Notes: generated by a model not told the origin, from the sequence alone. A stretch of 64,000 nt of DNA from an uncultured Candidatus Saccharibacteria bacterium (GCA_964510945.1 CAZEED010000001.1:98774-162773); one strand, 5' to 3'; positions 4,097-62,220 are shown, counted from the stretch's first letter. Numbers and translations: made by a program.

Positions 4097-4137
4097 CGAG
4101 TACTTCATCTTTATAGATACGCTTTCGAACAAACATA

Positions 4138-4175
4138 TTGGCACTCTTGACATGAGAGTGCTAATTTCATAATAT
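4138..4175 (+). promoter_or_regulatory. CIRCE-like operator overlapping the clpC promoter
   Basis: TTGGCACTC-N9-GAGTGCTAA (4138-4164) versus consensus TTAGCACTC-N9-GAGTGCTAA (17/18). The spacer starts with TTGACA (4147-4152); 17 nt later is TAATAT (4170-4175). Confidence 0.7.
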
Positions 4176-20030: not shown

Positions 20031-20408
20031 ATGTCAAGGAAACCCGAATTAAACTTTGAAGACGTTCGTTCAAATGAAGATTTAGTGAATCTAGGTGTTG
20101 AGCTAGAAAGAAGATACCCTGAGCTTGAACTTGGAATTCTAACAGTCATGTCAAGATACATTGATACACAAAGAGGACCGAATGATGTTGATAACGCAGT
20201 TAACGGATTAAAAAGTTTGGTTATGAGCGGCATCGATCATAGCGACATGACTGAACAAGTAGTACAACCTCATGGTAGCGCACTTACCTCAACTACGTAC
20301 AGAAGGCTCGAAAGACGAGGAATCCTACCTGCTTTTCGGGTTGACGTATCGAAGTCGTCAGCACCAGATCATGGGGTCATTGGAAAGATCTTAACACGTA
20401 AAAACTAG
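20031..20408 (+). CDS. Hypothetical protein (orphan between tig and clpP)
   Basis: 125-aa ORF, no recognisable motif, own promoter, no Shine-Dalgarno. Confidence 0.45.
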
Positions 20409-20431
20409 CACTCTTGACACGAGAGTGCCAA
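20405..20431 (+). promoter_or_regulatory. CIRCE-like operator upstream of clpP
   Basis: CTAGCACTC-N9-GAGTGCCAA (16/18 to consensus); spacer again begins TTGACA (20414-20419). Confidence 0.65.
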
Positions 20432-20470
20432 TTAATGTATTCTATTTGTACAATAAAAGGAGAGAAAATA

Positions 20471-21070
20471 ATGTCCACGAAAGCATCATCAGTATTAATC
20501 CCGACAGTTATTGAATCAGATGGTAGAGTTGAACGGGCTTATGATATATATTCGCGTTTACTCAAAGATCGAATTATATTTTTAGGCACAGACGTTAACG
20601 AGCACACTGCTAATTTAATTGTTGCTCAATTGCTGTTTCTTGAGTCTGAAGACCCAAAGAAAGATATTAAGCTATATATCAATAGTCCAGGTGGTAGTGT
20701 TTATGACGCTCTGGCAATTTATGACACTATGCAGTTTGTAAAAAACGACATAGAGACGGTTGGAATCGGTATCCAAGCTAGTGCAGCGGCATTTTTATTA
20801 AGCTCTGGAACTAAAGGTAAGCGGTTTTTGCTAAAAAACGCCACGGCAATGATCCATCAGCCTTCAGCAGGTACTCGTGGCAAGGTTACTGATATGGAGA
20901 TTGACCTTAAAGAAGGTATAAGAATTAAGCATAAATTAAACGAAATTATGGCCAAAAATACCGGTAAACCTATCAAGCAAGTCGAAAAAGACATGGACCG
21001 AGATTATTGGATGACATCTGATGAAGCAGTAAAATACGGCCTAGCCGACAAAGTCATCACCAACCGCTAA
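20471..21070 (+). CDS. clpP: ATP-dependent Clp protease proteolytic subunit ClpP
   Basis: ORF 20414-21070; start moved to ATG 20471 behind AAAGGAGAG. Catalytic Ser context [37 protein letters not shown]. Confidence 0.93.
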
Positions 21071-21082
21071 AATACCCACTTT

Positions 21083-21682
21083 ATGAGTACATTGCAAAAT
21101 CGATCTGAAAAATATTTAGTATCAGTTGCCGAAGCGACTCAATGGATTGTTGAAATGGGTTTACCGGAAGAACATATACCCCAATACAATTCTTTAAATA
21201 GATTGTATTGGGGTGGACATTTTGGTCAGGCAGTAATAGTTCTCGCTAACCAAGAGCCAGTAAATCGCAGTATGGATCTAGGTCTAATCTATGCCGCAGT
21301 AAGTGCTCGTAACTCTTGCAGCTATTTGGGGACACCAATTAAATCTCGACAAGATCAATTCGCTAAATCGTATAGTAAATTCGGTAAAGCATGGGCAGCT
21401 GCAGATAATAGGTTCCAGAAGGGATTAGAGCCCAGTATGATGGGTGCGTTAGCATTTGTGTTCGCTCCATCAAAGAGCGAATTAAGTTCTCCAATACCTG
21501 GTGGTGTACTTATCGCGGCACATCCCTCAAATTCTGAATATTTGCCGGATTTCTGCGGATTGTATGGGTGGGATACTAATAGATATGCGCCTTTTGAGGA
21601 TGAAGATCATAAAGTCGGCGCAGCAGAAGACCATTACCCTAATAGACTCGGATTCCTATTACCTGAAGTTCAGCCAAACTAG
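21083..21682 (+). CDS. Hypothetical protein (cargo between clpP and the clpP 3' relic)
   Basis: 199-aa ORF; Trp/Gly-rich, no recognised family. Confidence 0.45.
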   Translation: MSTLQNRSEKYLVSVAEATQWIVEMGLPEEHIPQYNSLNRLYWGGHFGQAVIVLANQEPVNRSMDLGLIYAAVSARNSCSYLGTPIKSRQDQFAKSYSKFGKAWAAADNRFQKGLEPSMMGALAFVFAPSKSELSSPIPGGVLIAAHPSNSEYLPDFCGLYGWDTNRYAPFEDEDHKVGAAEDHYPNRLGFLLPEVQPN

Positions 21683-21702
21683 TCTTGGATCAATAAATCT
21701 AT

Positions 21703-21786
21703 GAAGACACGGATAGGGATTACTGGATGACTTCGGACGAAGCAGTAAAATACGGTCTAGCCGACAAAGTCATCACAAACCGTTAG
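21703..21786 (+). pseudogene. Relic second copy of the clpP 3' end (last 27 codons plus stop)
   Basis: Aligns with 20988-21070 (13 mismatches in 83 nt by my count). Encodes [27 protein letters not shown] versus [27 protein letters not shown]. An in-frame TAA lies immediately upstream and there is no start. Confidence 0.8.
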
Positions 21787-34080: not shown

Positions 34081-34881
34081 TTATCTTGTGATGTCCGTTT
34101 CGAATTGTCTCAGGTAATATCCATTACTGTCGTGTTCTTGTGGTTTTGTTGGTTCAAAGATTTTAATAGATGCCAGTTCAATGCCACCTTCAGGTACTTT
34201 AATGAAGAGTTTTGCTTTTATGGATTTTTTTATTCTTACCGCGTATTGTCCTCGATGTATTGGCTCACTCTGCGGATGTGATCTAGGTACGACAGATTTA
34301 TAGCCAACATCATAAAAACCCCAGCAAGCAATTTCGCGATACCGATTAGGATCGCTTTCATATCGATGGGTGAAATTTATATGATATGCTCCATCCTTGG
34401 TCCCCCACACTTTATTGATATCTCTACTCAAACGTAGTTTTATGGTTGTATTCTTTTCTAGAGCTCGCCAGCAAACATACACAGCCATTGGACGTTTTGA
34501 TGTAGGAATGGTAAACCATTTACTGAAGTAGACCCATCCTTCGTTATCTAGAGTGTGTTTTTCATCGGCGTGATTCATCCTCCAACCATCAATCATAGGG
34601 CCACCTGGTTTAGCGGGCATACGAATATTCCCGCCTTGAGATTTAACCGATACTAACTTACCTCTGTAATACTTGAATGGTGTGGGTTTGTAATTAACTA
34701 TTTTTCCCGCAGCATAGGTTTTATTATATCGTTTAGAATCCGCCGACGAATCTTTTAGATTCAGCAAATCCATACTAAAAATAACAAGTCCAATTACGAA
34801 TATTAATATAATTGAAAAAGTTATAATTTTTGATTTATTTGATAATTTAAGATCCTTATTTTTCTTTTTTTTGTTTGCCAT
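34081..34881 (-). CDS. Membrane-anchored two-Cys extracytoplasmic protein, paralog 2
   Basis: 266 aa; MANKKKKNKDLKLS tail, TM, NIRMPAKPGGPMIDGWR, RPMAVYVCWRA, IACWGFYD, LASIKIF; SD AAGGA before the ATG. Confidence 0.65.
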   Translation of the reverse strand: MANKKKKNKDLKLSNKSKIITFSIILIFVIGLVIFSMDLLNLKDSSADSKRYNKTYAAGKIVNYKPTPFKYYRGKLVSVKSQGGNIRMPAKPGGPMIDGWRMNHADEKHTLDNEGWVYFSKWFTIPTSKRPMAVYVCWRALEKNTTIKLRLSRDINKVWGTKDGAYHINFTHRYESDPNRYREIACWGFYDVGYKSVVPRSHPQSEPIHRGQYAVRIKKSIKAKLFIKVPEGGIELASIKIFEPTKPQEHDSNGYYLRQFETDITR

Positions 34882-34912
34882 ATTTGTCCTTAGCTACATT
34901 TATTAGTTATCT

Positions 34913-35869
34913 TTAATTGGTGATGTCAGATTCAAACTGTCTATCGTAATAATTTGCACCGAGTTTAGATCTTTCAGGCGGTTGTGTTGGGTGAAAAACT
35001 TTTATTGAAGCAATTTCTACTTGGCCACGAACCTTTATATTAATTCTAGCCTTAATGGATTTGGATTTATTCATTTTTTTCATGTATTGCCCTGGATATA
35101 TTGGCTCGTTTTGCGGATGTGATCTAGGCACGACACGTTCATAGGCGATATCGTAAAAACCCCAACATTTTATTTTTTGCCACTCATCGTCACCATGTTC
35201 ATAACGATGTATATAGTTCATTATAGGCGCGCCATTTTTGTCTGACCATAATTCTCGTCTATTCTTGTTACTGAGCGTAGGACCTGCGAATAGAAGTTTT
35301 AATGATGTTTCTTTGCCGGACAATGATCTCCAGCAGACATATAAAGCTAGCGGTTTATCACTCTTGTCTTTTGGGATATTTATTTCTTTTGAAAAATAAG
35401 ACCAGTCAGGTAAATATGTAGTAAGTCTAGGGTTTACAGCTTTTTTATTGGGTTTTAACTTTTTAAAAAGTTTATCGTAGGTTGATGAGTTAACTAATGG
35501 CGATCGCCATCCCTTAATCATAGGACCTCCTGGTTTGGCAGGCATTCTTATGTTCTTTCCTAAAGATTTCATCATTACAAAATCATCGTCGCCGTATATT
35601 CCGCTATCTTTACGAACTTTTGTTTTGCCGTAGTTAACGATTTCGCCGGCTGGGTAAGTTCTATTGTAATTCTTAGAATCTGCAGATGAGTCTCTTAGAT
35701 TCAGCAAATCCATACTATAAATTAATAATGCAAGTACAATTACTAATAAAATTGAAAAAGTTATAATTTTTGTTTTATTTGATAATTTAAGATTCTTATT
35801 TTTCTTTTTTTGTTTGGCATTTTCTCTCCTATACTTAAGCATTATACATAACACACTAATTGATTCCAA
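34913..35869 (-). CDS. Membrane-anchored two-Cys extracytoplasmic protein, paralog 3 (conserved ATG at 35820 is out of frame because of an A7 tract)
   Basis: ORF open to 35869. The homolog of the paralog-2 start (ATG 35820 behind AGGAGAG) is in the +1 frame. Motifs NIRMPAKPGGPMIKGWR, KPLALYVCWRS, IKCWGFYD, IASIKVF. Confidence 0.55.
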   Translation of the reverse strand: MESISVLCIMLKYRRENAKQKKKNKNLKLSNKTKIITFSILLVIVLALLIYSMDLLNLRDSSADSKNYNRTYPAGEIVNYGKTKVRKDSGIYGDDDFVMMKSLGKNIRMPAKPGGPMIKGWRSPLVNSSTYDKLFKKLKPNKKAVNPRLTTYLPDWSYFSKEINIPKDKSDKPLALYVCWRSLSGKETSLKLLFAGPTLSNKNRRELWSDKNGAPIMNYIHRYEHGDDEWQKIKCWGFYDIAYERVVPRSHPQNEPIYPGQYMKKMNKSKSIKARINIKVRGQVEIASIKVFHPTQPPERSKLGANYYDRQFESDITN

Positions 35870-36034: not shown

Positions 36035-37216
36035 ATGGCAGATTTTGATCGAAGTAAACCACACGTAAACGTTGGAACAATGGGGCACGTTGACCATGGT
36101 AAAACAACACTAACAGCAGCAATTACAGCTGTACTAGCTAAAAAGCTTCCTAGCGACGTTAACAAACCAGTTAAATACGACGAAATTGACAAAGCACCAG
36201 AAGAAAAAGCACGTGGTATAACAATTGCGACATCTCACCAAGAATACGAGAGTAAAAAACGACACTACGCACACGTTGATATGCCAGGTCACGCTGACTA
36301 CGTCAAGAACATGATTACAGGTGCCGCACAGATTGACGGAGCGATTCTAGTAGTATCAGCTGCAGATGGCCCTATGCCTCAAACACGAGAACACGTACTA
36401 CTCGCAAAACAGGTCGGCGTTCCATCGATACTTGTATTCATGAACAAGATGGACCTTGCAGATCCAGAACTAGTTGAACTAGTAGAAATGGACATTCGTG
36501 AACTACTCGGCAAATACGAATTCGACGAGAACGCTCCAATTATTAAAGGTTCTGCAACTAAAGCTCTTGAAGGTAGTGCCGCAGATGAAGATGCCGTTAT
36601 GGAACTTGTCGACAAGATGGACGAATATGTTCCAGAACCAAAACGAGACCTTGATAAAGACTTCTTGATGGCTATTGAAGACGTTTTCTCAATTAAAGGA
36701 CGCGGAACTGTAGCAACCGGTCGTATTGAACAAGGAGTTGTTAAGGTAAACGAAGAAGTTGAAATTGTCGGTATCCATGATACAAAAAAGACTGTTGTTA
36801 CAGGTGTAGAGATGTTTAAAAAGAATCTAGATCAAGGTCAGGCTGGAGATAACGTCGGAATCTTACTTCGAGGTATCGAACGTGATGATATCGAACGTGG
36901 TCAAGTTTTGGCTAAACCCGGTTCAATTACGCCTCACACAGAATTTGACGCAGAAGTATACGTGCTAACAAAAGAAGAGGGTGGACGACACACCCCATTC
37001 TTTAAAGGTTACAAACCTCAATTCTACTTCCGAACAACGGACGTTACAGGTGAGGTAGAACTACCGGCTGATAAAGAAATGGTCATGCCTGGTGATACAG
37101 TAACTTTCAAGGTTAAATTGATCCAACCGATTGCTATGGATCAAGGTCAACGATTCGCCATCCGTGAAGGTGGACGAACAGTTGGCGCCGGTGTTGTAAC
37201 AAAAATTACAAAATAA
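36035..37216 (+). CDS. tuf: Elongation factor Tu
   Basis: 393 aa; [25 protein letters not shown]. Confidence 0.98.
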
Positions 37217-37402: not shown

Positions 37403-37789
37403 ATGGCTGAAGCCGATAAGACACAACCAACAAAAAAGCCAGCAGCAAAGTCTGCTGATCTAAAAGAAAAGGCCGTAGCTTCTACGAGTCAAAGGATTCG
37501 GATCCGATTAAAGGCTTATGATCATAAAGTAATTGATCAGGCTACAAAACAAATTGTCGATACTGCAATTCGTACAGGTGCTAATATTGCAGGACCAATC
37601 CCACTGCCAACAAGAAGAACCGTCTATACAGTCGTAAAAAGTCCGCATGTCTTTAAAAAAGGCCGAGAGCAGTTCGAGATGCGTACGCACAAACGACTCA
37701 TTGACGTATTAGAACCAACCCCTAAGACAATTGACTCGTTAATGAACCTAAGTCTGCCCGCTGGTTGCGATGCAGAAATTAAAATGTAG
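37403..37789 (+). CDS. rpsJ: 30S ribosomal protein S10 (with about 25-aa Lys/Ala-rich N-extension)
   Basis: ORF 37367-37789; start at ATG 37403; core [18 protein letters not shown]...RTHKRLIDV. Confidence 0.93.
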
Positions 37790-37798
37790 ATTTCTTGT

Positions 37799-37975
37799 AT
37801 ACTTTTGTGCCGGCAAAAGTATGGCAAAACCTCGGGCTATCCGTTTGTCTTTACATATCTTCTTGTCAATAATCACAACAGCCTGCGGAACTCATCCGCC
37901 TGCTGGCGGACTCAAACAGTCCTCGGCATTCTAGTTGTGATTTTGACGAAGTTAATCAGGACAAGCCGGAGGCCC
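37799..37975 (+). repeat. Structured foldback element, copy A (5' hairpin ATACTTTTG/CAAAAGTAT plus long imperfect stem with variable apical hairpin)
   Basis: Alignable with 53015-53206 (+) and 53277-53467 (-). Conserved blocks ACAACAG(C/T)CTGCG(G/A)AAC and CA(A/G)ACAGTCCTCG(G/C)C; helices maintained by paired substitutions. Confidence 0.65.
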
Positions 37976-38013
37976 AAACAACATCATCGAAAATATAATG
38001 ATACAATACGTTT

Positions 38014-38277
38014 ATGGCAAAAAAACAAAAACGTATAAGAGAAACAGACGATGCATATTTCTTAAAACTAGTATTATTCATGATCTTGGGATCAATGTGG
38101 TTAAAAGTCAGTGATGGTCAATCTTGGCAAATTCCGTTACCCATAGGACTAGTTTTCGGAATACTACTGGCGAGACATGACCATTTTAGGATAGATCGTA
38201 AAATAGAATATGCTGTGCTACTAATTGCAGCGTTTGTGGGTTTTTGGGCGCCAATAGGGATTTATATTAATCTGTAA
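38014..38277 (+). CDS. Small hydrophobic protein (about 3 TM) inserted between rpsJ and rplC
   Basis: 87-aa ORF; TACAAT (38002-38007) lies 6 nt before the ATG, no SD; no family recognised. Confidence 0.45.
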   Translation: MAKKQKRIRETDDAYFLKLVLFMILGSMWLKVSDGQSWQIPLPIGLVFGILLARHDHFRIDRKIEYAVLLIAAFVGFWAPIGIYINL

Positions 38278-38433
38278 TATACACAACATATTGACAGAGG
38301 TAAGTTATTCGTGTTAATCTGTTATGGTATCAAGAAAAACCTTGGTGATTCTAGTGAAGGTTTGCTCGTTTTAACAGGGGCAAAAACCACATAAGAGCCA
38401 ATTTTTTTATGCAAATAAACGAAAGGTTAGATA

Positions 38434-52132: not shown

Positions 52133-52573
52133 ATGAAAACTTATAGTGCCAAAAATACCGATGTAGAACGCAAATGGTGGCTGGTTGATGCTTCTGATTT
52201 AACTTTAGGTAGATTATCAACTGTTATTGCGACAAAACTCACAGGCAAAGATAAACCTATATTTAGCCCTCACGTTGATTGTGGCGACTATGTAGTAGTA
52301 ATAAACTCAGATAAATTAGTAGTTACTGGCGATAAACTTAACAAAAAGACTTATTATCGACATAGTGGCTTCCCTGGAAATCTTAAAGAGTCTAGCCTTC
52401 AAGAGCAAATCGATAAGGATTCGAGAAACGTAATTATATACTCGGTACGCGGAATGCTACCTAAAAACAAGTTACAAGACCCTAGAATAAAACGATTAAA
52501 AGTGTACGCTGGACCTGAGCACGATAACACCGCACAACAGCCAACAACGCTAAATCTTAAGGAAGGTAAATAA
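52133..52573 (+). CDS. rplM: 50S ribosomal protein L13
   Basis: RKWWLVDASDLTLGRLSTVIATKLTGK. Confidence 0.95.
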   Translation: MKTYSAKNTDVERKWWLVDASDLTLGRLSTVIATKLTGKDKPIFSPHVDCGDYVVVINSDKLVVTGDKLNKKTYYRHSGFPGNLKESSLQEQIDKDSRNVIIYSVRGMLPKNKLQDPRIKRLKVYAGPEHDNTAQQPTTLNLKEGK

Positions 52574-52974
52574 TGGCTATAAAAAACGCATATTTCTATG
52601 GTTTAGGACGAAGAAAAAGTGCCTCAGCACGAGTCAGGATTTCGGGCGGTAGCGGAAAATTCATTATCAATGATCACACAGCTGAAGATTATTTCGCTAA
52701 TAGTAAAAATTTGCTAAATGAACTAACAAAACCATTTACTGCGGTTGATCTAGTTAATAAGTTTGATGTTAGCGTTAAAGTTATTGGTGGAGGACACAGT
52801 GGACAAGCTGATGCCATTATCCTAGGTATTTCAAAAGCACTTGCAGTTATGAACGAAGATCTTAGAAGCACATTGCGTCGTGCAGACCTACTCGGTCGCG
52901 ATCCAAGAGAGAAAGAACGTAAGAAGTTCGGACTCAAGGGCGCTCGTAAACAAAGACAGTTCACAAAACGATAA
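52573..52974 (+). CDS. rpsI: 30S ribosomal protein S9
   Basis: GGGHSGQADAIILGISKAL...DPREKERKKFGLKGARKQRQFTKR. Confidence 0.96.
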   Translation: MAIKNAYFYGLGRRKSASARVRISGGSGKFIINDHTAEDYFANSKNLLNELTKPFTAVDLVNKFDVSVKVIGGGHSGQADAIILGISKALAVMNEDLRSTLRRADLLGRDPREKERKKFGLKGARKQRQFTKR

Positions 52975-53014
52975 TTTTCAAATTTTTGAGTAAAATAACA
53001 TTTTCGCAGTTTCA

Positions 53015-53206
53015 ATACTTTTGACCGCCAAAAGTATGACAAAAGCTCGGGCTTAACGTTTTTTCTTGACTAACTCACTAGTCAAGACAAACAACAGTCT
53101 GCGGAACTCCCCCGCACCTATTGCTTAGACAAAAGGTGCGGGGTCAGACAGTCCTCGCCTGATAGTTGTTTGTTTGACCTGAGTCATCAGGAAAAAGCCG
53201 ATGCCC
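53015..53206 (+). repeat. Structured foldback element, copy B
   Basis: ATACTTTTG-ACCGC-CAAAAGTAT hairpin; ACAACAGTCTGCGGAAC...CAGACAGTCCTCGCC; apical hairpin CCCCGCACCT/AGGTGCGGGG; aligns with copy A. Confidence 0.65.
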
Positions 53207-53276
53207 AACACAAAAAACAACCCCGCAACGTTAGTCTGGTCGTTGGCCAGATAAACGATGAGTATTACATATTGTT

Positions 53277-53467
53277 GGCATCCGGCTTGTCCTGAATAAC
53301 TTCGTTAAAGTAACAACAAAAAAGGCGAGGACTGTTTGAAGTTAGTAGTATGCCTGAGTGGCATATTACTAACAAGTTTCGCAGTCTGTTGTTATCTTTA
53401 ACTAGAAGTTATATAAAGACAAACGAAAAGCCAAGAGTTTTGTATTACTTTGGCGATACAAAGTAAT
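53277..53467 (-). repeat. Structured foldback element, copy C (inverted relative to B)
   Basis: The reverse complement aligns with copy A (CGTTTGTCTTTATATAACTTC..., ...GACGAAGTTATTCAGGACAAGCCGGATGCC); apical hairpin GTTAGTAATATGCC/GGCATACTACTAAC. Confidence 0.65.
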
Positions 53468-53513
53468 AGTTTTTGAATTATATTTACAAAATTTCTGACA
53501 TGATTGATAATAC

Positions 53514-53542
53514 TTGACAAATTATATATGAAGCTGTATTGT
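53514..53542 (+). promoter_or_regulatory. Candidate promoter TTGACA-17 nt-TATTGT for the G+C-rich operon leader
   Basis: TTGACA 53514-53519; TATTGT 53537-53542. Confidence 0.4.
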
Positions 53543-53656
53543 CTTATGGTTATGTTTCAAAACATTATAAACAACACAACTTATTGGTTTACCTCCAAAT
53601 ATTCATGGCGGCAAACTTCGTATTGTCTATAAAATAACAAACTATCAAGAAATATT

Positions 53657-53699: not shown

Positions 53700-53960
53700 A
53701 TGATAAGACCAGAGCATAATCCAGAGAGAGTAACGGCAGGTCTACCGGACCAGATAGAATCAATCCCGAGTAGATTGCTAATTGCTCTAGATCAAGGAGT
53801 AATTAAAGAATCAGATTTAGTACCAAATATTGCAGCGACTATAAGCAGTAATCATAGGCCCGAAGTTGACCCACCATTAAATATTCATGAACAAGTAGAA
53901 CGAACCAGACACATAAATCAATTAGCAGCTAGCTGCGTAGAACAATTTTCAAAACAATAA
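53700..53960 (+). CDS. Hypothetical protein (first ORF of the G+C-rich operon)
   Basis: 86-aa ORF behind AAAGGAG; no motif recognised. Confidence 0.45.
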   Translation: MIRPEHNPERVTAGLPDQIESIPSRLLIALDQGVIKESDLVPNIAATISSNHRPEVDPPLNIHEQVERTRHINQLAASCVEQFSKQ

Positions 53961-61437: not shown

Positions 61438-61612
61438 CCCCTGTTCTGATAAAATTTACAGGTACTTTTCGCTGTTTTAACCTAGCTTTTCAACCTAACG
61501 ATTCGATTTATTCGGCTCGAGCGATTGAAAGGCTAAGAAAAAGAAGCGACTAGAGATTGAAGGCAAATATTCGTAGAATGTTAGCGGAAAGTCGACCGTC
61601 GGTTCTGACGAG

Positions 61613-61689
61613 CCGCCTTAGCTCAGTTGGTTAGAGCGACGGTTTTGTAAACCGTAGGTCGTCGGTTCGAATCCGACAGGCGGCTCCAA
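61613..61689 (+). tRNA. tRNA-Thr (anticodon TGT), CCA encoded
   Basis: GCCGCCT/AGGCGGC acceptor, anticodon loop TTTGTAA, T-loop TTCGAAT. Confidence 0.92.
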
Positions 61690-61724
61690 AAGAGACGTAT
61701 GCAACTTTATGTTACAGGCGGCTC

Positions 61725-61737
61725 CACAGAAAACTTC
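61725..61737 (+). repeat. Direct repeat of the tRNA-Thr 3' end (ACAGGCGGCTCCA), copy 2
   Basis: Identical 13-mer to 61677-61689. Confidence 0.85.
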
Positions 61738-61790
61738 TACTAGTTTACTGGAGAGAAGTTTTCGAGGAAGCAACTGCAGCCCGAAGGGCT

Positions 61791-61803
61791 ACAGGCGGCT
61801 CCA
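61791..61803 (+). repeat. Direct repeat of the tRNA-Thr 3' end (ACAGGCGGCTCCA), copy 3
   Basis: Identical 13-mer; preceded by hairpin AGCCC-GAA-GGGCT in a T-arm-like position. Confidence 0.85.
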
Positions 61804-61918
61804 TCCTTCGTCGCTGAAGCTATGAAGGATAAACATATAGAATGCCATGCGAGAGCATTCTAGAACATTTGAGGTGAGTTCAGAGAAGTGTTGACGACCC
61901 GAAACTCGGGTCGTTTAC

Positions 61919-62004
61919 GCAGGGTTAGTGAAGCGGTCAAACACGGCAGACTGTAAATCTGCTGGCTTATGCCTTCGTAGGTTCGAATCCTACACCCTGC
62001 ACCA
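61919..62004 (+). tRNA. tRNA-Tyr (anticodon GTA), long variable arm, CCA encoded
   Basis: GCAGGGT/ACCCTGC acceptor, anticodon loop CTGTAAA, variable arm, T-loop TTCGAAT. Confidence 0.9.
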
Positions 62005-62011
62005 ACTATAG

Positions 62012-62036
62012 AATCCCGCATTTGTGGGATTTTTTA
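62012..62036 (+). terminator. Intrinsic terminator after tRNA-Tyr
   Basis: AATCCC...GGGATT stem followed by TTTTT. Confidence 0.65.
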
Positions 62037-62143
62037 GTTGGTCCTGATTAATAAATTCGAACCGACAGGCGAGAACAGTCGGGGACTGTTTGAGTTATAA
62101 ATATTTATAGCGAGATGCTTTAGCTCTCGAGCGGATAAATCAA

Positions 62144-62166
62144 TTCGAGTCCTACACCCTGCACCA
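62144..62166 (+). repeat. Direct repeat of the tRNA-Tyr 3' end (TTCGAGTCCTACACCCTGCACCA)
   Basis: 22/23 identical to 61982-62004. Confidence 0.85.
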
Positions 62167-62220
62167 ATTCTGTAAAGTATTAAGGACGTCAGAACCGCGT
62201 CCTTTTGTTATAGTAGAGTC

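Follow-up and report, generated by a model that had tools for sequence, protein, structure and literature searches.

The 64,000-nucleotide stretch of DNA analysed here (the window), from an uncultured Candidatus Saccharibacteria bacterium, covers a ribosomal-protein region of a Saccharibacteria-like genome of the Candidate Phyla Radiation (CPR), and it carries three full copies, designated A, B and C, of a structured repeat of about 200 nt that is the subject of this report. Copy A is a solo insertion straight after the stop codon of rpsJ, with its 5' hairpin starting 10 nt past that codon, and copies B and C, oriented tail-to-tail, form an empty pair straight after the stop codon of rpsI. An initial annotation of the window had described copy A as a foldback element; the sequence features that it listed were all found where it had placed them, and B and C have the same layout. 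It was right that an element is present, but the extent that it gave (37799-37975) is too narrow, as empty sites in related strains give 37790-37998. The parts of the copies, a possible fourth remnant and the neighbouring genes are as follows.

37790-37998, plus strand: copy A, the complete inserted unit of 209 bp, with limits from the empty allele
37799-37831, plus strand: 5' domain of copy A, consisting of the hairpin ATACTTTTG-TGCCGG-CAAAAGTAT (37799-37822) and then GGCAAAACC
37830-37882, plus strand: 5' arm of the long imperfect stem of copy A, from the fold
37883-37925, plus strand: apical core of copy A, consisting of CTGCGGAACTC, a 6-bp variable hairpin and (C)TCAAACAGTCCTCG; pattern and covariance-model match (42.9 bits, E = 3e-9)
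37926-37972, plus strand: 3' arm of the long stem of copy A; the tail at 37973-37998 is unpaired and part of the insert
52975-53513: block of about 539 bp with the pair B and C, present or absent as one unit
about 53015-53206, plus strand: copy B, with its core at 53099-57 and an apical hairpin of 10 bp
about 53277-53467, minus strand: copy C, with its core, of the variant form CTGCGAAAC, at 53326-53384 and an apical hairpin of 14 bp
62041-62093, minus strand: probable half-copy D, consisting of TCAAACAGTCCCCG, 43 nt and TAATCAGGAC; not detected by the covariance model
36035-37216: tuf
37787-37789: stop codon of rpsJ, which ends at 37789
38014-38277: open reading frame (ORF) for an 87-aa membrane protein, between rpsJ and rplC
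38434: start of rplC
52573-52974: rpsI

In the long stem of copy A, CCTCGGGCT (37830-37838) pairs with AGCCGGAGG (37964-37972) and AATCACAAC with GTTGTGATT, and the stem of the unit closes directly onto the first C and the last G of the core. The 5' domain of this copy is a short version of a pseudoknot and mirror-repeat domain found in other phyla. Copies B and C align with A end to end, with stems that differ on both strands and apical hairpins that are unrelated. Pairwise identity is 82% for A and B, 81% for A and C and 77% for B and C, and a recent inverted duplication as the origin of the pair was rejected because the last of these values is not above the other two. Searched with a covariance model of the apical domain, the window yields A, B and C (E = 3e-9, 3e-7 and 2e-4, respectively) and nothing further below E = 2.

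Both the solo unit and the pair, as a unit, have been gained or lost between near-identical strains. At site A, contigs that encode an identical L3 protein include four with the element (L141, L145, L146 and L149) and three in which the site is empty (L142-L144), reading TAG, TC and then TGATACAATAC where the window has 209 bp; it is this empty allele that delimits the insert. In L148, an unrelated segment with a 50-aa Pro-rich ORF stands in place of the element. At the site of B and C, the whole block is present in four contigs with an identical S9 protein (L151, L152, L154 and L155), and in L153, L158 and L159 the rpsI stop codon TAA is separated by 8 bp (TATTTAAT) from a downstream TTGACA promoter-like box; L150 has no core and a different downstream gene arrangement. 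Both insertion sites begin straight after a stop codon. The conserved S10-operon leader, which the initial annotation had named among the findings that would overturn its account, is refuted by these empty alleles between rpsJ and rplC, and the 77-aa ORF that it had thought probably spurious is called as a gene in no relative and is missing from the empty alleles. The empty sites that it had proposed to look for do exist; the target-site duplications expected with them have only degenerate candidates, which are AAAATGTAG/AAAATATAA at A (7/9 positions) and the 6-bp GATAAT at the B-C block.

Copy A folds at -73.6 kcal/mol (z = -7.4), a stability that is equalled by 0 of 200 shuffles. At its apex, as in the other copies, lies a domain of about 32 nt that is almost invariant around a variable mini-hairpin, with about 22 nt invariant across phyla; the consensus, CUGCGGAACUC-variable hairpin-(C)UCARACAGUCCUCG, is present in nearly all matches of the species scan described below. 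The compensatory helix differences that had been proposed between the copies are real, in that positions 6-8 of the helix below the core, C-G/T-A/A-T in A and A-T/A-T/C-G in B, differ as pairs. The covariation check that had been suggested also bore out the proposal: in an alignment of 83 covariance-model matches, paired cells amount to 91.4% versus 74.7% in shuffles, cells changed on both sides number 115 versus 38.5, and the covariation score is 0.284 versus 0.086 (0 of 500 shuffles reach it, and slid partners give at most 0.054), all of these being counts over phylogenetically related copies and not over independent events. Base pairing in this family is under constraint. Even within the core, 8 copies have C-G in place of the pair G13-C41, and 2 have G.U; the copies with C-G constitute a "type 2" unit with a 31-nt apical hairpin.

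The initial annotation took the element to be a three-copy family, and three full copies are indeed all that the window holds, but the family is found across phyla. A scan of one genome per species with the pattern CTGCGRAAC-N(10-40)-ACAGTCCYCG, which is biased to exact cores, matched at least 120 loci. These lie in Beta- and Gammaproteobacteria, including cultured Dechloromonas, Thauera, Chitiniphilus, Azoarcus, Uliginosibacterium and Niveibacterium; in at least eight CPR lineages (Saccharibacteria, Magasanikbacteria, Gracilibacteria, Paceibacterota, Nomurabacteria, Falkowbacteria, Uhrbacteria and Microsaccharimonas); in Nitrospirota, Lachnospiraceae and other Firmicutes, and Coriobacteriia and other Actinomycetota; and in Spirochaetota, Elusimicrobia, Myxococcota, Bdellovibrionales, Gastranaerophilales, Bacteroidota and Planctomycetota, where taxa are taken from record titles and the labels of metagenome-assembled genomes (MAGs) are as given. 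The core is fixed and the flanking stems track the base composition of the host, being AT-rich in CPR and Firmicutes and GC-rich in Betaproteobacteria, from which it follows that the elements are residents of those genomes. In keeping with the earlier statement that the element belongs to no recognised RNA family, Rfam 15 at its gathering thresholds gave no match for the window element or for 22 loci from many phyla, and at E<=10 only chance matches to miRNA and snoRNA families. No true blastn match was obtained among plasmids (PLSDB, 72,556) with either of two proteobacterial queries, one of them a full copy and the other a core, and none among 50,697 phage records with the proteobacterial core as the only query, an absence that resembles the situation of vertically inherited REPIN systems. 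Viral contigs gave 13 pattern matches, of which about four are true copies (L125, L128, L131 and L132). Metagenome matches to a looser pattern, AACAGNCTGCGRAACT, numbered at least 120 loci and were all rejected as chance, the second half of the core being missing. Searches of the literature left the core and pseudoknot strings unmatched, shorter strings returning only primers and the like, and no description was found in the literature on Saccharibacteria MITEs, triplex repeats or REPINs and defence, one outside the searched literature being possible. As a separate observation, copies in Betaproteobacteria (L012 and others) carry CTGCG-NNN-CTCG three times per unit, in the core and in internal loops of both arms (e.g., CCTGCGTTGCTCG and CCTGCGCTACTCGG), which could represent putative repeated binding sites or an internal duplication.

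In proteobacterial, Nitrospira and many other copies, the 5' domain is more elaborate than in the window and consists, in the orientation in which copy A is read here, of a pyrimidine arm, a loop, a purine arm and a second purine tract. Bases past this tract are complementary to a portion of the loop (mean longest run 4.16, versus 3.24 with permuted partners and a maximum of 3.61 in 200 permutations), and this complementarity points to an H-type pseudoknot. The second purine tract is moreover the mirror image of the purine arm, as in A4GA3/A3GA4, A2GA5/A5GA2 and A2GAGA3/A3GAGA2. The mirror relation prevails over a direct-repeat relation in 32 versus 7 copies and 22 versus 7 distinct sequence combinations, and most mirror alignments are free of mismatches; in copies A-C of the window the tract is only A4, which fits the mirror relation but is uninformative. 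A mirror relation is what base triples need, and by its sequence the predicted pseudoknot has what a triplex requires. Two arrangements would fit. One is a purine-motif triplex on the strand as read here; the other would form on the complementary strand as a parallel U.A-U / C+.G-C triplex with loop 1 of the pseudoknot in the major groove, which is how RNA triple helices are commonly arranged (PMC7583470). The complementary strand presents a U-rich strand, a second U-rich strand, a loop and an A-rich 3' strand inside the H-type pseudoknot, with the third strand parallel to the purine strand and C's opposite G-C pairs, an order like that of the triple-helix RNAs (PAN ENE, MALAT1) and of triplex pseudoknots (telomerase RNA, SAM-II, preQ1-II). 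Unlike triple-helix stability elements, however, the domain has no U-rich internal-loop clamp or poly(A) tail, is joined to a 150-nt hairpin and is known here from DNA sequence alone; such elements are listed in viruses, vertebrate long non-coding RNAs and eukaryotic transposons, not in bacteria (PMC7583470). If the triplex is real, this pseudoknot with its mirror repeat would rank among the few extended base-triple helices that bacteria have outside riboswitches. Taken together, the covariation of core and hairpin, the complementarity in the pseudoknot and the mirror relation indicate that folding as a single strand is constrained.

Just six of 56 solo copies lie between divergent genes and the other 50 lie outside divergent intergenic regions, a placement that matches the published distribution of repetitive extragenic palindromic (REP) sequences (PMC3733652). 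The orientation of solo copies is unbiased with respect to co-directional neighbouring genes (19 versus 15) and shows no preference with respect to the upstream gene (31 versus 35, of 56). The covariance model also recovered divergent partners of pairs. Some 27 adjacent pairs share one geometry, with the pseudoknot ends outward and the 3' tails facing each other, and the reverse inverted arrangement occurs in none of the adjacent pairs; three adjacent tandem pairs, with both units in the same orientation, occur in L013 and L109. Paired units either abut or enclose cargo. Four Gallionellaceae genomes (L012, L069, L092 and L117) have one slot in common, with an ATPase gene on one side and a MutT/ThiE-like gene on the other, and its cargo differs in each: proteins of 183 and 323 aa, McrBC and a membrane protein of 244 aa. 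In every case the cargo lies between a canonical unit and one of type 2 (core GAGCAC...GTTGCGC, with the 31-nt apical hairpin). Matches to known families among the cargos of paired loci are as follows.

L107: RelA/SpoT-domain protein, PADLOC PDC-S33, E = 3e-104
L125: DUF2971 protein, PADLOC PDC-S31, E = 6e-48
L060: 162-aa protein, PADLOC PDC-S67, E = 2e-56
L092: McrBC pair, Pfam AAA_5 and McrBC

By these matches, the pairs in some lineages bracket a slot with varying accessory genes that are mainly candidates for phage defence. The pseudoknot or triplex domain, the obligate geometry of the pairs and their cargo had all been overlooked in the initial annotation, which to that extent was incomplete. 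In the middle of one pair (L059, 1950-3450) lies an IS4/Tn5-like insertion sequence that encodes a transposase of 444 aa and ends in 19-bp terminal repeats of its own, CTACCGTATGCACACATCT; the notion that the elements are the ends of this insertion sequence was rejected because of those terminal repeats, and the spacer of the pair may be a preferred insertion target. No protein gene recurs beside the element among 119 loci of 8 kb, the set of loci to which statements about neighbouring genes refer, and Pfam searches with the ORFs across proteobacterial copies and with two small neighbouring ORFs in the window gave no family.

Among known systems, the closest in behaviour are the REP sequences and their composite forms, the bacterial interspersed mosaic elements (BIMEs) and REPINs, which are likewise interspersed intergenic palindromes, chromosomal, frequently arranged as inverted doublets and located at the 3' ends of genes, mostly between unidirectional or convergent genes, with most copies, as here, lacking a linked transposase. 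REPs are presumed to be recognised as folded single strands (PMC3733652, PMC6006769). The differences are substantial: REPs measure 20-40 bp and the units here about 190-210 nt; the conserved part here is a 32-nt apical domain held across phyla and not a GTAG/CGTC tag at the foot of the hairpin; there is an additional pseudoknot and mirror-repeat domain; the paired form carries cargo genes; and no RAYT (TnpA-REP, the Y1 HUH transposase of REPIN-RAYT systems) lies beside the element in the 119 loci. A GTAG/CGTC end tag was not found consistently by eye, no systematic scan having been made (the left flank of A ends in ..TGTAG, and B and C differ).

The long-hairpin miniature inverted-repeat transposable elements (MITEs) of bacteria, Correia/NEMIS, ERIC, RUP and bcr1, are similar to the present units in their size of 100-250 bp, multiple copies, lack of coding capacity, presence/absence polymorphism and formation of a stable RNA hairpin if transcribed. 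Unlike in MITEs, the ends here are not inverted repeats, since the 5' end is a pseudoknot hairpin domain, the 3' end an unpaired tail and the long stem internal; there is no clear target-site duplication; and no parent insertion sequence with the same ends was found, the sole transposase within a pair being that of L059. MITE families are also typically confined to one genus or species, in contrast to an element that spans many phyla with an invariant internal motif. The MITE-like foldback proposed earlier therefore holds as far as the element is dispensable or mobile, which the empty sites indicate, and fails on the definition of a MITE by its termini and by the lack of a clean duplication. 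There may be a likeness to the Correia repeat of Neisseria (AATCAGGACAAG, GTCTGCGG).

Integron attC sites, which act as folded single strands, share with these units an imperfect palindrome conserved in structure, a variable tip and flanking accessory or defence cassettes. Their conserved boxes, however, lie at the stem base and not at the apex, their consensus RYYYAAC/GTTRRRY is not matched by the stem bases of A, B and C (e.g., TCACAAC/GTTGTGA), and they form direct arrays beside intI, whereas the present units are solo or in inverted pairs with no integrase seen nearby. The ends of IS200/IS605 elements and PATEs are distinct left and right subterminal hairpins on the same strand, with tnpA or tnpB in the autonomous copies, as opposed to the inverted pairs here, for which no tnpA or tnpB cluster was found. 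The pdif modules of Acinetobacter plasmids, bounded by 28-bp XerC/XerD sites, resemble the paired form in that gene modules between inverted short elements are exchanged among locations; the core here differs in having no dif-like inverted arms and no PLSDB match. Three more specific identities were tried and rejected: a dif/Xer site, since the conserved arms are not mutual inverted repeats; a hammerhead ribozyme, since the element has CUGUYUGA...GAGU and the hammerhead CUGANGA...GAAA; and a K-turn, since the GA on one strand is not conserved. The family thus behaves most like REP/REPIN sequences but fails their defining size, and we class it among the interspersed structured palindromic repeats.

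Our best reading is that the family is old and widely spread and would be, in functional terms, a giant analogue of REP/REPIN or BIME elements, that is, a non-autonomous and structure-dependent mobile repeat, to which, arguing from this analogy, we would assign a probability of roughly 0.45. The unit of about 200 nt would fold as a single strand into an H-type pseudoknot, a long imperfect stem that drifts with the host and the near-invariant 32-nt apical domain; the latter would be the recognition site of a chromosomally encoded enzyme acting in trans, which may copy or move the unit by way of a single-stranded or extruded hairpin intermediate. The paired form would provide a slot in which accessory genes, mainly for defence, are exchanged, and if the ribosomal-protein transcripts were affected, for instance through a stable stem-loop at the 3' end, this would be incidental. 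Several points weigh against a giant REP-like mobile repeat. The loci surveyed yielded no candidate enzyme, whether a transposase, a RAYT or another. Neither a clean duplication of the target site nor a defined site of cleavage was seen, the candidates being weak and the alleles diverged; the indels between strains could be deletions rather than insertions, and some of the MAG taxon labels may be binning errors. To our knowledge, the cross-phylum invariance of some 22 nt goes beyond any REP or MITE family and is seen more typically in the core of a functional RNA or ribozyme. Finally, it is on the complementary strand that all of the loops rich in purines, the GNA triloops, the G.A pairs in tandem and a U.G pair conserved in 69/80 copies fall, which suggests that this one strand is the functional form.

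A more ambitious joint claim, which we put forward as tentative and on balance doubtful, is that the repeats represent an undescribed ancient class in which a single-stranded fold of about 200 nt, with a core of ribozyme grade and a base-triple pseudoknot, spreads via an RNA or single-stranded DNA intermediate, through a conserved enzyme or by its own catalytic activity, and shuffles phage-defence cassettes in bacteria from CPR to Proteobacteria. If the family is confirmed, one motif (CUGCGGAACUC...UCARACAGUCCUCG) would mark repeats common to Saccharibacteria, Nitrospira, Lachnospiraceae and Gallionella, and we know of no REP or MITE family with such a taxonomic range. So strongly conserved a motif implies either an enzyme conserved to the same degree or an activity of its own, and a partner enzyme would be findable by phylogenetic profiling against the motif. 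The inverted pairs around interchangeable defence candidates suggest an exchange of defence genes without integron, phage or plasmid. The family would also explain spurious ORFs and assembly breaks in many MAGs and would merit masking or modelling in their annotation.

The initial annotation considered a novel small structured RNA alongside a mobile element, and a structured non-coding RNA on the complementary strand, either trans-acting or a self-processing ribozyme, with the apical domain as its predicted active or protein-binding site, is the main alternative, though the less likely one. Such an RNA would have its A-rich 3' end protected by a U.A-U / C+.G-C major-groove triple helix in a 3'-terminal pseudoknot and would have spread by RNA-linked mobility or by duplication. 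The invariance of the core across phyla, combined with covariation, is what it would predict, and the mirror repeat exactly suits a parallel pyrimidine-motif triplex in an H-type pseudoknot (PMC7583470). The complementary strand, moreover, has the more stable fold in 100 of 128 copies, and its mismatches are purine-purine in 694 cases versus pyrimidine-pyrimidine in 399. On that strand the loops of the mini-hairpins are mostly GNA triloops, with GCGAAGC as the minimal form and flanks of GA...GA (tandem G.A pairs), a C/U mismatch in the core reads A.G, and the bases paired at 20-128 are U.G in 69 copies, with C-G in 11. This asymmetry nevertheless stems largely from the common conserved parts, so that the copies do not count as independent evidence. 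G.T and A.C appositions show symmetry in the variable stems (261 versus 284, p = 0.35), and there is thus no sign of selection on the folding of one transcript; the earlier argument that selection on structure points to a small RNA or a mobile element is undercut, as regards the RNA, by this symmetry and by the random orientation of the copies to genes, which together fit an element acting at the DNA level as well as, or better than, an RNA gene. Promoter-like and terminator-like sites were not above the level of shuffles, with no conserved promoter or terminator and no U-tract after the stems, and many pairs abut, leaving promoters no room; a promoter-like site on the minus strand at 38020-37992 (10/12) does not count as evidence. 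The transcripts of A and B would in addition be antisense to ribosomal-protein operons. The functional form may be either RNA or DNA.

A cis-acting role at cassette boundaries, which would be compatible with either the mobile-repeat or the RNA interpretation, appears improbable as the whole explanation. The outward pair would serve as a stabiliser of transcript 3' ends, a terminator or an insulator and also as homology arms for swaps, and the solo copies would be remnants. The geometry of the pairs means that cargo inserted either way round reads into a unit of the same orientation, four cargos occupy one syntenic slot, the cargos are defence candidates, and REP elements are thought to stabilise upstream mRNA (PMC3733652). 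Set against this, most copies are solo or in empty pairs, including all of those in the window, the solo copies have no preferred orientation to the upstream gene, no U-tract follows the stems, and the invariant core is left without an explanation. An ordinary feature of ribosomal-protein operons (an S10 leader or attenuator, an intrinsic terminator or a chance palindrome), which the positions straight after the rpsJ and rpsI stop codons would recommend, is scarcely credible, given that both sites are empty in strains with identical L3 or S9 proteins, that many phyla have the motif in contexts that are unrelated, that there is neither a U-tract nor an Rfam leader match, and that the fold has z = -7.4.

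Half-copy D is probably, though tentatively, a degraded 3' half of the repeat, as judged from its sequence. On one side of it is a tRNA (61919-62001) and on the other a repeat of the last 23 nt of that tRNA (62144-62166). The tRNA cluster in which it lies (61612-62200) has several repeated tRNA 3'-end fragments, ACAGGCGGCTCCA of the tRNA at 61612-61685 recurring twice downstream, and these look like scars of integrated elements. Around copy A, the predicted 87-aa membrane protein has no Pfam family and is present in most of the close relatives recovered (L134-L149), and L142-L144 have an extra segment of about 114 bp between its ORF and rplC. The rplC gene and an ORF at 53700 have a common promoter-like leader (38291-38335 and 53514-53560), with TTGACA-N17-T(A/T)(A/T)NNT and then TTATGGT(T)AT, which suggests that rplC may have its own promoter apart from rpsJ.

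Elsewhere in the window, the interval 34221-35830 has repeats of about 80% identity with the look of paralogous genes in tandem, an ORF at 34913-35869 encoding 318 aa, and a neighbouring gene pair at 20979-21785 has a common C-terminal segment that is 84% identical and looks ClpP-like. Two CIRCE-like inverted repeats, TTGGCACTC-N9-GAGTGCTAA at 4137-4167 and CTAGCACTC-N9-GAGTGCCAA at 20402-20432, both fit the HrcA operator consensus, which we take to be TTAGCACTC-N9-GAGTGCTAA, and they probably mark heat-shock or chaperone/protease operons.

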